A stretch of DNA of 54,801 nucleotides from Candidatus Amesbacteria bacterium GW2011_GWA1_47_20 (GCA_001002405.1 LCOA01000002.1:1-54801); one strand, 5' to 3'. Counted from the first letter of the stretch, positions 19,961 through 24,111 are shown. Numbers and translations are program-made. Notes: generated by a model from the sequence alone, not told the origin.

Positions 19961-20822
19961 AAATCACGGAACACCGGATGTCACGCATAAATGTTTGCAG
20001 AACTTGTATAAATCCCGGGGCGTAGATTTTGAAACTATTCTGATCAACAACACACCTGAGGACAAAATAGCTTTCCCGAAAGTAATAATAATCAACAACA
20101 AAAAACGCCTGGGGTTCGGGGCCAATAATAACCAAGGAATGAAGATCGCTAAAGGCGACAAAATATTACTTCTGAATAGTGATTGCTTTGTGCGGCCGGA
20201 CACGCTGGCCAGGTGTGTCCGCTTGCCCTACGACGTGGTGGGCTGCCGATTGACGACGGCTGAAGGAGCGACATTGCCGTCTACCGGATACTTCCCCACT
20301 CTGCGCCGGGTAGCGCAAATGATAGTGTTTTTCGACAATCTGCCAATCGTGCGCAAAGTCATCGATACCATTCACATCCGGGATGTGTCCCGGTTAGACA
20401 AACCGCAGGAAGTGGACTGGGTCCAGGGAGCATTCATGCTCATATCACACCGGGTGTGTGAGAAAGTGGGGGGATTTAACGAAAATTTCCACATGTATGG
20501 CGAAGAAATCGAATGGCAATATCGTATAAAGCAGGCGGGATTTCATATCTGGTACTATCCCGAAACTTCGGCGGTGCATCTGGAACGGATGAGCATTAAA
20601 TCTCTGGGCCCGTCGTTTATTGGAGAGATGATGGGTTATTTATATTACTTTAAACTGCACCGACCAAAATGGGAGCAGGTACTTTTGCCATGGGTGTTGT
20701 TGTTTGGATGTGTGATACGAATTCCTGCGTGGGCAGTATGGAGAAAATGGGATCTGGTTCGAACTTACGTTAACGTTTTGCCCCAACTAGTTTCTGCAAT
20801 TTATGGCCGGATTAAAAAGTAA
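19941..20822 (+). CDS. GT2-family glycosyltransferase (rhamnosyltransferase-like subtype)
   Basis: LSVIIINHGTPDVT, LLLNSDCFV and DWVQGAFMLISHRVCEKVGGFNENFHMYGEEIEW. ATG 19941 preferred, since the track start 19920 lies inside a -10-like box. Confidence 0.8.
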   Translation: MLSVIIINHGTPDVTHKCLQNLYKSRGVDFETILINNTPEDKIAFPKVIIINNKKRLGFGANNNQGMKIAKGDKILLLNSDCFVRPDTLARCVRLPYDVVGCRLTTAEGATLPSTGYFPTLRRVAQMIVFFDNLPIVRKVIDTIHIRDVSRLDKPQEVDWVQGAFMLISHRVCEKVGGFNENFHMYGEEIEWQYRIKQAGFHIWYYPETSAVHLERMSIKSLGPSFIGEMMGYLYYFKLHRPKWEQVLLPWVLLFGCVIRIPAWAVWRKWDLVRTYVNVLPQLVSAIYGRIKK

Positions 20823-20845
20823 ATATTCCAAGTTTGGATCGATGG

Positions 20846-20870
20846 AATTCCCACCTTTCAGGTGGAAATT
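20846..20870. terminator. Weak hairpin between convergent genes (possible bidirectional terminator)
   Basis: AATT-c-CCACC / tttca / GGTGG-a-AATT: a 5-bp GC core plus a 4-bp AT extension with one mismatch. The right arm touches the stop codon at 20869-20871. Confidence 0.2.
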
Positions 20871-21420
20871 ACTTAGCCTTTTTTCGTAGTAGTAACCACT
20901 CCCCATAGTCCAATTCTTTAACGAATCGAGTCGGTGGTTTATATCGTGTTTGAAAATAAGCAAATGATTCCAAAGCGGATCCATGTCCTATTATAATCAC
21001 ATTCTTAGTTTGATTCCGAACTTTATTTAGATCCTCAAGAAAAGATTCCGCAACAAATTTGGGGGTAGACACTTCGTTGGGTAAATTATAACTTAGGTAA
21101 GAGTCAAAATATCTAGCTGTTACGTCCCTCTTACACGCCGAATTTGTGATCCATGAGTCTATATTCGATACTCTCATATTGGAAAATTTGGTAATTGATT
21201 TTAGGCCAAAAAATTGACGTGTCAACATAGCTGATTCAATCGTTCTGTTTGTATTGCTGGAAAATATCTCTAGGTTTTTTCTTATTCCAGGAACATTTTT
21301 AGAAATAATCTTACAGGTTTCAATTATCTGATTCCTCCCTTTTTCAGTTAACTTTCGATTAGGATTTGTTTTATCCCTTTCAGTTTTCCCATGCCTAATA
21401 AGAATAATTCTTTGAATCAT
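20869..21420 (-). CDS. Histidine phosphatase superfamily (phosphoglycerate-mutase-like) protein
   Basis: ILIRHGKTE (RHG motif) and a later IIIGHGSALE histidine. ATG 21420 preferred (track start 21438 is TTG). AT-rich. Confidence 0.75.
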   Translation of the reverse strand: MIQRIILIRHGKTERDKTNPNRKLTEKGRNQIIETCKIISKNVPGIRKNLEIFSSNTNRTIESAMLTRQFFGLKSITKFSNMRVSNIDSWITNSACKRDVTARYFDSYLSYNLPNEVSTPKFVAESFLEDLNKVRNQTKNVIIIGHGSALESFAYFQTRYKPPTRFVKELDYGEWLLLRKKAK

Positions 21421-21421
21421 A

Positions 21422-22822
21422 TTATTGGGTCGGCGCAAATCTAACCGGTATTTGAATGGCGTCCTTTTGCACGTGAACAGCTTTCGACTTTCTAGCCGTA
21501 ATTCCCACAGTTAATATCCCGCCATCGCCATACTGAGAATACAGCTCGACTCTAGTATACATTAACGAGTGGTTCAAATGGCCTGATTCGGTGTGCCAAA
21601 AAGGAAGGGGTGTTTGTTCTACTTTTAGTTGAAGAATATAGCTTGCTGGGGCTGTCATCAAGTCAGCAATCATAGTGCCTCTGCCGTCGTTTCCGTTGTT
21701 AGTCAATGAAACGCCTTTGGCTCCAGAACTGACTGTCTTTTTAATGACCCACTTATCCCCCTCCTTTTGCAATAAGCCAGCGACTTCATTCTTGTTGGCT
21801 TTTGTTACAAGTATTGTTGTGGGGAGATATTTCCTCAATGTCTGAATCGTTGACCACTTGAAATATTCTTGCAACCATTGATCAATCATGGGATCGTTTA
21901 GCCCATTACTTATAACCCCTAAAAGGGATTTATTGCATAAGAATCGATTTGGTGGTATTAAACAATAAACCGCTCCGTCCTTGTATAAGTCATATATGTT
22001 TTCCCCGCCAGCCCCCGCTGGTTTTACAAGATGGCCGTTTGGGTTAAGAGTGGGTATATTAACTAGCCATCGTGATTTTGATCTACCCACTTCTAATGGA
22101 TAGTTTTGTCCTGGATTTATTTTCAAGGATTCCTCAGTTGCCACTGTCAATTTTAGTCCGGCTTGTCTTGCTGCTGGTTGTAATAATTTTTCCATTTCTG
22201 CTAAGTAGAATCTTTCAGAATCACCCACTAATAAAAAGATTGTTTCGTCACCAACTGCTCCTTTAATTGCTTCAACAAAAGTTGTTCCAGGTATCTGGCC
22301 TATGATTTCTTTACTATTTAACAAAATGAATCCATCGTAATAGCCCATACCATGGGATTTGTCGCCTTCAATTTCAGCAATCTGGAAGTAGATTTGTCCT
22401 GCACTTTGGTCGGATTGCAACATCAAATCACATCTTGCAAATAATGGTAATTGATTGAACAACGCTTGGACACCCAATTCGTATTTGTTTATCCCCAAAC
22501 TCAAAGATTTCCAAATCATACCACCAGTGAGAGATCCCTTTAACGCATCGCTTTCTTTCAACGCGCTAAACATCTTTAAAGAGCCATGAAGAAAACCACC
22601 TGGTGCGTAAACTGCACTACTTATCTCTCTTAGTTCGTTTTCTTGTTCTCTATTAAAAAGTTTTACATTGGGAGACAATTCAAACCTGTATTTTTCCCTA
22701 TCTGATTCATTTGACCATAAAGACCCCTCCAATCTGGTCTTCTGGCTATTAATCAATTGGTTTAAAACAGGATTTTCTATTCCCATAAAAATCGCCCCTA
22801 TAAAAGGGGCGATTTGGGCCAA
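21422..22822 (-). CDS. ATP-grasp-like ligase of unknown substrate (glutathionylspermidine-synthase/circularly-permuted ATP-grasp-like)
   Basis: ARCDLML...IYFQIAEIEGDKSHGMGY (RxD...E.E pre-ATP-grasp-like), WVIKKTVSSGAKGVSL, YILQLKVEQTPLP and YTRVELY...GITARKS. The start is uncertain: TTG 22822 or ATG 22786. Confidence 0.45.
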   Translation of the reverse strand: MAQIAPFIGAIFMGIENPVLNQLINSQKTRLEGSLWSNESDREKYRFELSPNVKLFNREQENELREISSAVYAPGGFLHGSLKMFSALKESDALKGSLTGGMIWKSLSLGINKYELGVQALFNQLPLFARCDLMLQSDQSAGQIYFQIAEIEGDKSHGMGYYDGFILLNSKEIIGQIPGTTFVEAIKGAVGDETIFLLVGDSERFYLAEMEKLLQPAARQAGLKLTVATEESLKINPGQNYPLEVGRSKSRWLVNIPTLNPNGHLVKPAGAGGENIYDLYKDGAVYCLIPPNRFLCNKSLLGVISNGLNDPMIDQWLQEYFKWSTIQTLRKYLPTTILVTKANKNEVAGLLQKEGDKWVIKKTVSSGAKGVSLTNNGNDGRGTMIADLMTAPASYILQLKVEQTPLPFWHTESGHLNHSLMYTRVELYSQYGDGGILTVGITARKSKAVHVQKDAIQIPVRFAPTQ

Positions 22823-22996
22823 TCACTGTACCACCCTATTGCAGAAATCTACTAAAAATGAGGCGTATCAACCTTGACGTCCTCTTGAGATTTCTCTCGT
22901 TACAGCTATCATGGGCTTACCCATATTGCATTTGTGCAATCAGCTCGAAAGACGCGACTCTTTCTCAAACGCTTTTTAAATTGTAAACTTATAGTA

Positions 22997-23128
22997 CTAC
23001 TTCTTCTTTCTCCTGTCAAGTTTTTTTAAGTCCGATAAACGAATAGCAATATAAACTATCCCAAAAGCGATTATGGTCAGGGCAAAAGCAACGGCTGCCC
23101 GAACATTTATATCTAGTAAACTAGGCAC
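22997..23128 (-). CDS. Candidate unannotated 43-aa single-TM peptide
   Basis: GTG 23128 is preceded by AGGAGG (23141-23136) at 7-nt spacing. Translation (M)PSLLDINVRAAVAFALTIIAFGIVYIAIRLSDLKKLDRRKKK. Below the ORF-track size cutoff. Confidence 0.3.
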   Translation of the reverse strand: MPSLLDINVRAAVAFALTIIAFGIVYIAIRLSDLKKLDRRKKK

Positions 23129-23336
23129 TTTTACTCCTCCTGGCGTTCTTTCTTAAACGCAAAGCTAACACTAAACTTAATATACCTAAAACTATGTCAA
23201 TCGTCAATACTAACCAATTGGCCGGTAAACCTAACTGGAAAAAATTTGATACGATAAACACTGCCCCAAACCACCCAGCCGCCAAATTGACAAACAAGTC
23301 TGATAAAATTCCATACAGATCTTTTTGTACCGTCAT
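23121..23336 (-). CDS. Small two-TM membrane protein
   Basis: MTVQKDLYGILSDLFVNLAAGWFGAVFIVSNFF...LALRLRKNARRSKSA. ATG 23336 forms an ATGA overlap with the stop of the upstream GT2 reading frame; the track start is 23387. Confidence 0.4.
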   Translation of the reverse strand: MTVQKDLYGILSDLFVNLAAGWFGAVFIVSNFFQLGLPANWLVLTIDIVLGILSLVLALRLRKNARRSKSA

Positions 23337-24111
23337 ATTACACGAAATATTTTCGATATTTTTTGGCTGGTCCAGGTAATAAACCATAGTAAATAATGCT
23401 TGAGCGGGCCGTTATACCAGAGAGAGGCAGCGGCGTGATATTTTTGAGCGGCACCACCGGATTTGGCTGAACTTTGTCCATGTTCGTGGACAATGGTAAT
23501 CCCGGGGTGGAAAATTATTTTCATTCCTGCCTGACGGAGGCGGCGGCAATAATCCATATCTTCGTAGTAAATAAATACTTTCTCGGTAAATTTGCCTATC
23601 TTTACGATCGTACGTTTGGACAAGAACATACAGGCGCCAGAGATAGCGTTGACAGCAACGGGCTGGCTGCCCGTTGGGGTGTATTTTTGAGTCAGGCCTT
23701 TTTGGCCGAGCCAGTATTCGGCTCGGGAAAAACGGACCCCTGGGGAGTACCGTCAGGGTCAAGGAATTTGGGACCGAGGACGCCCACGTCGGAGTGAGAT
23801 TTGAGATATGCGATGGCTTTGGTAAAAAAATCTTTGGGTAGGAGGGTGTCGGGATTAAGAATCAAGATGTAATCCCCCGTCGCCCGCTCTAATCCCTGAT
23901 TCCACGCCCGGGGTACACCAACATTGGTTTTGTTTTGAATAAATTTGACTTTCTTTGGATGGATGGGGGTGGAAGAAGCATTGTCGATGACAATTATTTC
24001 CAGATTTGGATACTTGGTGGCTCGAATTGAGGCTAGGCACCGAGCCAACGAATCGGCTACGTTCCAATTGACAACAATTACACTAATTGAATTTGGCAAA
24101 GAGGTTTTCAT
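23333..24111 (-). pseudogene. GT2 glycosyltransferase interrupted by a single -1 frame change at an A5 run
   Basis: The N-terminal ORF 23692-24111 (SVIVVNWN, VIDNASS, ILNPDT) ends at TGA 23692-23694. The remainder (AVNAISGACMFLSKRT...YYEDMDYCRRLRQAGMKI) continues in the -1 frame. The frames meet at C-AAA-AAG (23704-23698). All expected motifs are present. Confidence 0.7.

Follow-up and report, generated by a model that had tools for sequence, protein, structure and literature searches.

Canonical class I transcriptional T-boxes (RF00230), such as those of Bacillus tyrS and glyQS, combine a kink-turn (K-turn), a specifier followed by a purine, a Stem III, an antiterminator with a 7-nt bulge and a competing terminator. 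The genes under their control normally serve the supply or the charging of one amino acid, which makes T-boxes reliable reporters of function. In the case of serine, phosphoglycerate mutase (PGM)-type phosphoserine phosphatases are the last supply step that is coupled to charging. T-boxes with an ultrashort Stem I are represented by the actinobacterial ileS leaders (Sherwood et al. 2015, as reviewed in PMC7583486); transcriptional T-boxes generally need a long Stem I, and ultrashort stems are typical of translational ones (review, PMC7583486). Among ATP-dependent carboxylate-amine ligases are Cp1B, the fungal amide ligase of E-64, and the Escherichia coli peptide-spermidine ligases YgiC and YjfC (PMC12568646). 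Here we analyze a stretch of 54,801 nucleotides from Candidatus Amesbacteria bacterium GW2011_GWA1_47_20 (GCA_001002405.1 LCOA01000002.1:1-54801, hereafter the window) and report that an AT-rich block on its minus strand, 20809..22993, is a 2.2-kb cassette consisting of a T-box leader, the gene for an ATP-grasp-like ligase and the gene for a histidine phosphatase. The T-box very probably reads tRNA-Arg. It is the only one in the whole 692-kb source genome (37 contigs, 92% complete). Thus the sole T-box in the 0.7-Mb genome of an ultrasmall bacterium of the Candidate Phyla Radiation (CPR), which has no recognizable arginine metabolism, controls an orphan enzyme pair from a family without sequence model, structure or literature. 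We found no paper that ties T-boxes to ATP-grasp enzymes in the CPR.

The T-box lies in the gap in front of the ligase gene. An earlier note, made from the sequence alone, had described this gap as 174 nt of non-coding DNA, the longest in the window, and had suggested a look for structured RNA. The gap exists, but with the corrected start of the ligase (see below) it spans 210 nt (22787-22996), and it is not clearly the longest, as elsewhere in the window gaps of about 266-290 nt separate open reading frames (ORFs) of at least 120 aa. The suggested look was rewarding: the gap is a T-box riboswitch with an apparent Arg specifier and compensatory pairs in relatives. A permissive Rfam scan of 20500-24000 gave RF00230 as the single strong match, at 22802-22978 on the minus strand, covering model positions 1-219 with 43 bits (E 2e-7, or 2e-8 when 400 nt were scanned alone). 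The 5' part of the leader is an ultrashort Stem I (22943..22972) with a K-turn-type base (GCGUUUGA...GAGC), in which a 6-nt terminal loop, GUCGCG (22958-22953), stands in place of 74 model positions. Beyond it follow two small hairpins and a Stem III. The T-box sequence of the leader reads AAUAGGGUGGUACAG; its core AGGGUGGUAC (22837-22828) and the antiterminator, together 22806..22837, were placed with the cmscan alignment and the RNAalifold consensus helix. The 7-nt bulge of the antiterminator is UGGUACA, and the UGGU with which it begins (22833-22830) can base-pair with ACCA-3', the end of a tRNA that has A73. The terminator/sequestrator hairpin (22787..22814), seen in the sequence, in a terminator scan and in the minimum-free-energy fold (z = -3.1), is made up of AAUCGCCCC (22814-22806), the loop UUUUAUA (22805-22799), GGGGCGAUU (22798-22790) and a UUUUU run to 22787, which directly adjoins the ATG at 22786. 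The 5' arm of this hairpin doubles as the 3' strand of the antiterminator.

The same RNA is found in relatives, for which we use L numbers for loci and G numbers for genomes. Homologous leaders stand 5' of the ligase in L037, L001/L039/L040, L003/L011/L043 and L007. Related leaders score 49.7 bits in L003 and 36.7 bits in L001, and further ones occur in L007, L037 and, at another locus than the cassette site, in the same-genus genomes G006 and G008. When five window-type leaders were aligned with RNAalifold, the T-box architecture was recovered, and 11 of the 43 consensus pairs show compensatory changes. Equivalent terminator hairpins are present in L037, L001, L003, L007, G006 and G008. In the window, L001, L007 and L003 the expression platform has the form of an intrinsic terminator, a GC-rich hairpin with a run of 5-7 U. 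In L001 and L007 this hairpin is situated 20-60 nt before the start codon, and sequestration of the Shine-Dalgarno sequence is therefore unlikely there.

Compared to canonical class I T-boxes, the window leader has all of their parts and matches the model from position 1 to 219. It differs from them in its score (43 bits versus 93), in the 74 missing Stem I positions and in its uncharacterized ligase/phosphatase cargo. With the ultrashort-Stem I T-boxes it shares the truncated Stem I without an elbow-binding distal platform, the specifier in a small terminal loop and the retained T-box and UGGN bulge. Unlike the reviewed examples, it carries an intrinsic-terminator platform, an Arg (CGC) specifier, as far as it can be read, and a cargo that is not an aminoacyl-tRNA synthetase (aaRS), and its host belongs to the CPR. 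The combination of an ultrashort Stem I with a terminator platform runs counter to the published generalization on long Stem I.

The tRNA that the leader senses can be deduced from the Stem I loop. After the specifier CGC (22956-22954) comes a purine, and the loop U-CGC-R is invariant in nine leaders, with either G or A after CGC. The helix that carries this loop is wholly replaced between leaders (GAAAGA/UCUUUC, CCCG/CGGG, CGGA/UCCG, AGG/CCU and CUGG/CCAG). A tRNA-Arg(GCG) with the discriminator A73 is encoded at C27:2090-2164 and fits both the CGC and the UGGU bulge. Because CGC-purine is kept, because this tRNA matches and because ArgRS lies downstream in relatives, we assign the specifier to Arg with high confidence; a Val specifier (GUC) is excluded by CUC in L037 and CCC in G008 at that place. 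These features strongly suggest that it is tRNA-Arg that controls the cassette, and they firmly predict the regulatory logic, namely that the two genes are wanted when tRNA-Arg is uncharged.

The first gene behind the leader encodes a ligase of 454 aa (21422..22786, minus strand). The ORFs as called were the phosphatase at 20869-21438, a 466-aa ORF at 21422-22822 and two small ones at 22997-23128 and 23121-23387, all on the minus strand. The large ORF reported in the earlier note is indeed there; its size is not 466 aa, since the start is not TTG 22822, which lies inside the riboswitch, but ATG 22786, where the 96%-identical P0001 and all homologues begin. The note had likened the protein to glutathionylspermidine synthetase (GspS) or a circularly permuted ATP-grasp ligase, and this call proved correct. 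All the motifs on which it was based are present in the translation (RCDL, IAEIEGD, VIKKTVSSGAKGV and QLKVEQTPLP). Of the two kinds of search that it had proposed, sequence models and structure, only the structural one succeeded. The ligase has no match in Pfam, NCBIfam or PDB sequence searches, and the family models PF03738, PF03917, PF14403 and PF04174 do not match it; PF14403 (CP_ATPgrasp_2) is weakly touched by 11 of 69 relatives (best E 4.7e-5), and a profile of these 69 sequences run against the PDB gave noise only. An AlphaFold2 (AF2) model from 13 sequences, with a predicted local distance difference test (pLDDT) of 83 and a predicted TM-score (pTM) of 0.85, was then compared to the PDB with Foldseek. 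It matched 8fbz, 3kal, 2hgs, 9cjn, 7uk8, 3n6x and 2io8 (E 5e-15 to 1e-8, TM-score 0.45-0.56), with the matches comprising human, yeast, plant and trypanosome glutathione synthetases, Cp1B, YgiC, YjfC, the putative GspS 3n6x, GspS and trypanothione synthetase. There were 52 PDB matches with E <= 1e-3. Among the matches listed all are ATP-grasp ligases, the last being RimK (E 4e-4), and those listed above RimK are only glutathione synthetase/effector, Cp1B, YgiC/YjfC, 3n6x, GspS and trypanothione synthetase.

The model thus supports well a circularly permuted ATP-grasp fold of the glutathione-synthetase/GspS/YgiC type. In the 69 homologues D120, E138, Y194, K286, P322, K349 and Q386 are invariant, and R118 and E140 are nearly so. 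By analogy with the superfamily, the chemistry would be an ATP-dependent carboxylate-amine ligation via an acyl-phosphate. Like glutathione synthetase, GspS, YgiC, YjfC and Cp1B, the ligase appears to have this fold together with the RxD...ExE and KK...SSGxKGV motifs, which form the GspS-like pattern of the earlier note. It is 11-15% identical to these enzymes in sequence, and none of them shares the phosphatase partner and the aaRS-operon context of its family. Homologues are few: a word search among 5.8 billion proteins gave 12, and a full HMMER pass gave 147 cluster representatives, 82 of them with E <= 1e-10. The closest named relative is a protein from an Amesbacteria metagenome-assembled genome (MAG) with 56% identity, most of the others are from Patescibacteria, and the family is almost confined to CPR/Patescibacteria MAGs.

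The second gene encodes a histidine phosphatase of 183 aa (His_Phos_1; PF00300 with 28.4 bits at a cut-off of 21.7) at 20869..21420 on the minus strand. Its start is most likely ATG 21420, which gives the length of the 93%-identical copy in L037; with this start the 1-nt gap to the ligase described before holds. All 11 partner phosphatases compared have R9 and H10 of the RHG motif, R59 and H146, and by these residues the enzyme should be a catalytically intact PGM-type phosphatase. In 11 of the 12 near lineages the next gene after the ligase is a His_Phos_1 gene. In a distant clade of ligases (23-30% identity) a HAD-like protein of about 146 aa is encoded directly upstream in 12 of 12 loci; it matches PF13242, has D-x-N/M/L-x-T as motif I and looks like a non-orthologous replacement of the phosphatase. 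Since a phosphatase-type partner of two different folds accompanies the ligase, we believe that the pathway includes phosphoryl hydrolysis as an integral step. The idea that the ligase has a conserved phosphatase partner is thereby borne out, and the possibility that homologues never co-occur with a phosphatase is decisively gone.

The genomic context of the relatives links the pair to aminoacyl-tRNA synthetases. All near-clade loci with enough downstream sequence run into an aaRS gene, with the exception of the window lineage, and in these other near relatives the ligase sits between a regulatory leader and ArgRS or HisRS. ArgRS is downstream in the L001/L040/L057 group, in the L003/L011/L043 group and in L007; HisRS is downstream in L005, L006/L044, L038, L041, L059, L060 and L061. 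Two distant-clade loci, L013 and L017, also have ArgRS downstream, and a third, L018, has MetRS upstream. The ligases linked to a T-box and ArgRS form one clade in the tree (87/85). The window ligase falls within a 100/100 clade, and those of its other members whose downstream sequence is readable are all in argS operons; the pair is therefore a detached argS-operon module. The ArgRS genes that follow the ligase in L001:7894-10191 and L003:7415-9880 carry an N-terminal B3_4 domain; this is the family of the PheRS beta editing domain and is unusual for ArgRS. The source genome's own ArgRS is present as two overlapping ORFs (400 aa and 151 aa; G000:C32:6775-8363) at the very end of contig C32, where the assembly stops short of any upstream leader.

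The HisRS-linked loci have a different leader. Rfam gave no T-box in L005 or L006 at E <= 1. Instead, a promoter is followed by an upstream ORF (uORF) of 15-31 codons with a Trp-His motif, alternative hairpins, a terminator with a U-run and the ligase start (L005:5830-6003, L006:190-352, L038:3330-3482, L041:3830-4003, L059:3360-3503 and L058:960-1220). The motifs are SWHYH, LWHYF, RWYHR, LVHHA, VWHFY and RWHCY, and the arrangement resembles leader-peptide attenuation with one or two His codons as the sensor. A second mechanism thus again places the genes under control of the cognate amino acid. Some HisRS-linked ligases, among them P0009, P0011 and P0018 (L006:350-900; L041:4001-4500), have an N-terminal extension of about 150-170 aa with a helix-turn-helix-like segment and a basic linker, which could bind nucleic acid.

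Further loci also combine T-boxes or tRNA genes with such enzymes. In the Shapirobacteria locus L028:3873-7465 a T-box, tRNA-Tyr(GUA), a distant ligase homologue (23% identity), a YbaK-type editing domain and an NYN protein occur together; this T-box is full-length (62 bits), and its specifier region GAAUUACC can be read as Tyr UAC or Leu UUA. In the distant-clade loci no known riboswitch reached the gathering score. In 3 of 13 distant loci (L013:1915-2316, L017:3202-3600 and L021:1259-1648) a transfer-messenger RNA (tmRNA) gene precedes the HAD-ligase pair by 1-3 kb, and tRNA genes are near the pair in several others. Other T-boxes in related genomes belong to ordinary aaRS operons. Related Microgenomates have operons of a T-box, a His_Phos_1 gene (177 bits) and SerRS (L033:581-2695), or of a T-box, a HAD hydrolase and SerRS (L030:2-1438). 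Here the phosphatase is probably a phosphoserine phosphatase coupled to the seryl-tRNA synthetase, and by analogy these operons would be a precedent for amino-acid supply coupled to charging. Like the window cassette, these SerRS operons have a phosphatase gene behind a T-box, in their case of the His_Phos_1 or HAD type and placed before the aaRS gene. The difference is that the window phosphatase is only 21% identical to the SerRS-linked one and always accompanied by a ligase.

How the pair came to its present place is seen from close relatives. The cassette is absent from the collinear site of three same-genus genomes: in G008 exactly 20809-22993 is missing and the region of two small transmembrane (TM) ORFs is kept, in G006 the flanks are joined directly (window 20811 | 23360), and in G007 the block is likewise missing. 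All three have the same glycosyltransferase (GT) cluster without the cassette, and the ligase was not found in these three genomes (91-97% complete). It is present in 1 of 24 same-family genomes. L037, an independent assembly with 90% nucleotide identity, has the cassette in the same GT context, and L055 (100% nucleotide identity) has it as well. The composition agrees with this picture. GC content of 20809-22993 is 0.385, compared to 0.469 +/- 0.036 for all 2,185-bp windows genome-wide; 2.4% of the genome windows are as low, which makes the block an outlier, not an extreme, and a lower region exists on contig C1. In 1-kb windows over 20501-23500 GC is 0.38-0.40, against 0.45-0.52 in the flanks. 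The compositional contrast with the flanks that the earlier note had seen by eye is thus real, the block is compositionally foreign, and the sliding-window profile that it had called for is that of an outlier. Both marks of a genomic islet, an empty site in close relatives and deviant composition, are present. The AT-rich block has been inserted into a glycosyltransferase cluster as a self-contained cassette, and all T-box features remained intact after its relocation. No mobility genes and no terminal repeats were found within 20809-22993, which holds the two enzyme genes only; the sole junction feature is a 7-nt microhomology, GTAGTAC (23000-22994), just after which the right junction lies. 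This heptamer is common to the empty site of G008 and to the T-box(Arg) leader locus of G006.

Taken together, we consider it probable that the ligase and the phosphatase, as an Arg T-box cassette, serve arginine supply or tRNA-Arg charging. Transcription would start from a promoter-like TTGACA-17-TACTAT (23019-22991) and run into the T-box leader. There, the anticodon of an uncharged tRNA-Arg(GCG) would pair with CGC in the ultrashort Stem I loop, and its free ACCA end with the UGGU bulge. This pairing would stabilize the antiterminator (22836-22806) and block the terminator/sequestrator (22814-22790) at the start codon, and with the terminator blocked both genes would be expressed. The ligase would form an amide bond using ATP and an acyl-phosphate intermediate, as the superfamily analogy suggests, and the phosphatase may strip the phosphate from the phosphorylated substrate or product of the ligase. 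The pair would have descended from argS operons with the order T-box, ligase, phosphatase and ArgRS, here detached from ArgRS, and the module would act when Arg-tRNA is scarce. A two-step, ATP-driven route could then raise chargeable arginine by salvage of a scavenged and probably phosphorylated precursor, or the pair could support tRNA-Arg charging in some other way. We propose the substrate and the physiological role with due hesitation, with arginine salvage as the job of the pair that seems most likely. Salvage of citrulline to arginine was rejected: no arginine deiminase (ADI), ornithine carbamoyltransferase (OTC) or argininosuccinate synthetase (ArgG) was found in the genome (92% complete) to feed such a route. 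A role of the pair as a substitute alarmone system was likewise rejected, because the genome encodes a RelA/SpoT homologue. More tentatively, and as a possibility on which we would not yet rely, the pair may be the core of an undescribed CPR-wide pathway that is switched on by the shortage of a specific charged tRNA, through the Arg T-box here and the His-codon leader in relatives, and that works by precursor-to-amino-acid ATP-grasp chemistry or by a bypass or support of aminoacylation through an acyl-phosphate. If true, the functions regulated by T-boxes would gain a new class, in organisms thought to have no amino-acid metabolism. About 150 clusters of uncharacterized proteins gain a testable hypothesis, arginine or tRNA-Arg charging, which bears on how minimal episymbionts handle amino-acid shortage.

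Several observations weigh against a role in arginine supply or charging. The T-box score of 43 bits is below the Rfam gathering score of 93, because the 74 Stem I positions are replaced by the 6-nt loop, and the distal Stem I platform, whose interdigitated T-loops contact the tRNA elbow, is absent as in the "ultrashort" variant. An Ala specifier (GCG or GCA) could formally be read from the same Stem I loop, at the cost of U or C as the next base in two leaders, which breaches the purine rule, and of a context that has nothing related to Ala. In the L003/L011/L043 group the phosphatase is missing and a GNAT gene, upstream of the ligase, takes its place. Additionally, we know of no arginine pathway that pairs an ATP-grasp ligase with a phosphatase, and, to our knowledge, no pathway with a phosphorylated arginine precursor is known. 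The Arg leader is moreover portable: it is kept in sister genomes while the cargo varies. In G006 (L051:4111-6000 = G006:C3:47610-49500) a leader with 82% nucleotide identity drives a 450-aa protein and a HAD-like gene, and in G008 (L052:721-2540, C48) one with 77% identity and the loop CCCGCAA drives a 265-aa protein without Pfam match and a 266-aa alpha/beta hydrolase with weak Peptidase_S9 and S33 matches. Finally, just two alignment columns split the ArgRS-linked from the HisRS-linked ligases, which, as far as the alignment tells, argues against strict side-chain specificity and for a generic job. Two columns were uninformative as a source of specificity-determining residues.

This last point leads to a serious, if doubtful, rival, in which the pair is a translation-linked module with one amino-acid-independent job, its target being, for example, the end of a tRNA, an aaRS, a translation factor or a metabolite of nucleotide type, and is carried in whichever aaRS operon it has reached, so that the Arg T-box reports a general need. 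The switch of the aaRS partner between ArgRS and HisRS with so few discriminating positions fits such a job, as do the distant homologues beside MetRS, in the order T-box, tRNA-Tyr, ligase and YbaK, or near tmRNA and tRNAs, and the B3_4 domain fused to ArgRS in L001 and L003. Yet the regulator is always cognate-specific, an Arg T-box or a His-codon uORF, and never a general signal, and the window pair retains its Arg T-box without any aaRS. Furthermore, the characterized fold relatives of the GshB/GspS type ligate small-molecule or peptide carboxylates and not RNA, and for general starvation signaling the RelA/SpoT homologue is already there. The portable leader raises another question, that of incidental regulation: the pair may have hitch-hiked in aaRS operons and kept its leader on moving, with a function in small-molecule ligation and dephosphorylation, for example for a cell-envelope or compatible-solute type product, that is unrelated to arginine or charging. 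The unrelated cargo in G006 and G008 and the present position inside a glycosyltransferase cluster speak for this. We nevertheless regard it as unlikely, given that an aaRS gene is the neighbor in every other near lineage whose downstream sequence can be read, and again in the distant clade, that two independent mechanisms are both keyed on the cognate amino acid, that the relocated T-box has lost none of its features and that three same-genus genomes have this GT cluster but no cassette in it.

The latter finding also bears on the roles suggested in the earlier note, amidation or acylation of a glycan or wall component within the GT cluster, or a peptide-modifying ATP-grasp system, taken here as one that would act on the TM peptides in the manner of ribosomally synthesized and post-translationally modified peptides (RiPPs). 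The block does lie among GT genes, and some ATP-grasp ligases modify peptides. However, the cluster manages without the cassette in G006, G007 and G008, and no relative of the ligase is in a GT cluster; they are in ArgRS or HisRS operons. The TM ORFs are an independent indel upstream of the promoter and T-box, are absent from the cassette-bearing L037, are present in the ligase-free G008 and have no homologues in the genome or in the compared loci. Both roles are thus highly improbable, and arginine supply or tRNA-charging homeostasis is the favored explanation over glycan or peptide modification.

The promoter-like TTGACA-17-TACTAT (22991..23019, minus strand; promoter scan score 10/12) itself reflects the insertion. 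Its -35 element is part of the 3' end of the 43-codon ORF, which is ancestral DNA, and its -10 element straddles the insertion junction at GTAGTAC. The empty site of G008 reads ...CTTGACAAGAAAAAGAAGAAGTAGTACC, and the leader locus of G006 has TTGACA-18-TACAAT with GTAGTAC. By this comparison the -35 element of the cassette promoter would be recipient DNA. The empty site is a natural experiment in which a cassette of riboswitch and cargo appears to have moved by microhomology and borrowed its -35 element from a recipient gene.

The two small TM ORFs of 43 and 88 aa (22997..23387, minus strand), which had been counted as part of the AT-rich block, do exist; they are outside the inserted block and belong to a separate indel at the 3' end of a split GT2 gene. 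A 330-nt indel (23021-23351) carries the 88-aa ORF and most of the 43-aa ORF. L037 lacks the segment 23021-23351 and G006 lacks the region, and G008 has it. The GT2 gene of L037 is uninterrupted and reaches the same LDRRKKK* end, whose last codons are also those of the 43-aa ORF. Neither TM ORF has a paralogue in the genome or in any relative locus compared. They are thus unrelated to the ligase/phosphatase system, and as candidate partners of the ligase they were ruled out by their absence from L037 and presence in G008. In a graspetide or RiPP system a conserved precursor peptide gene would be inherited together with the ligase; no ligase locus besides the window, L037 included, has the TM ORFs. 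The earlier impression that the peptides are unlike graspetide precursors is in line with this, as they are orphans that are not co-inherited with the ligase.

The other boundaries were described accurately before. Upstream, the decayed GT2 is broken into two ORFs, 23692-24111 and 23333-23629, each with a GT2 Pfam match. At the other end, the convergent junction at 20823-20868 is real: the stop codon of a plus-strand GT2 (20820-20822) is followed by a 46-nt spacer and by the stop codon of the minus-strand phosphatase (20869-20871). Within this spacer, past the phosphatase stop, the sequence contains a hairpin CCACC-N5-GGTGG (20851..20865, minus strand). The terminator scan made no call at this position, and the hairpin is possibly a weak operon-end hairpin without a U-run. 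The 450-aa protein that follows the Arg leader in G006 was considered as a convergent ATP-grasp and rejected, as it is not homologous to the ligase (hhalign probability 1.4%). It belongs to a family of 57 members without a Pfam domain and has no structural neighbor in the PDB (best E 0.55). Its AF2 model has a pLDDT of 92 and a pTM of 0.90, and its predicted fold may be an undescribed one.

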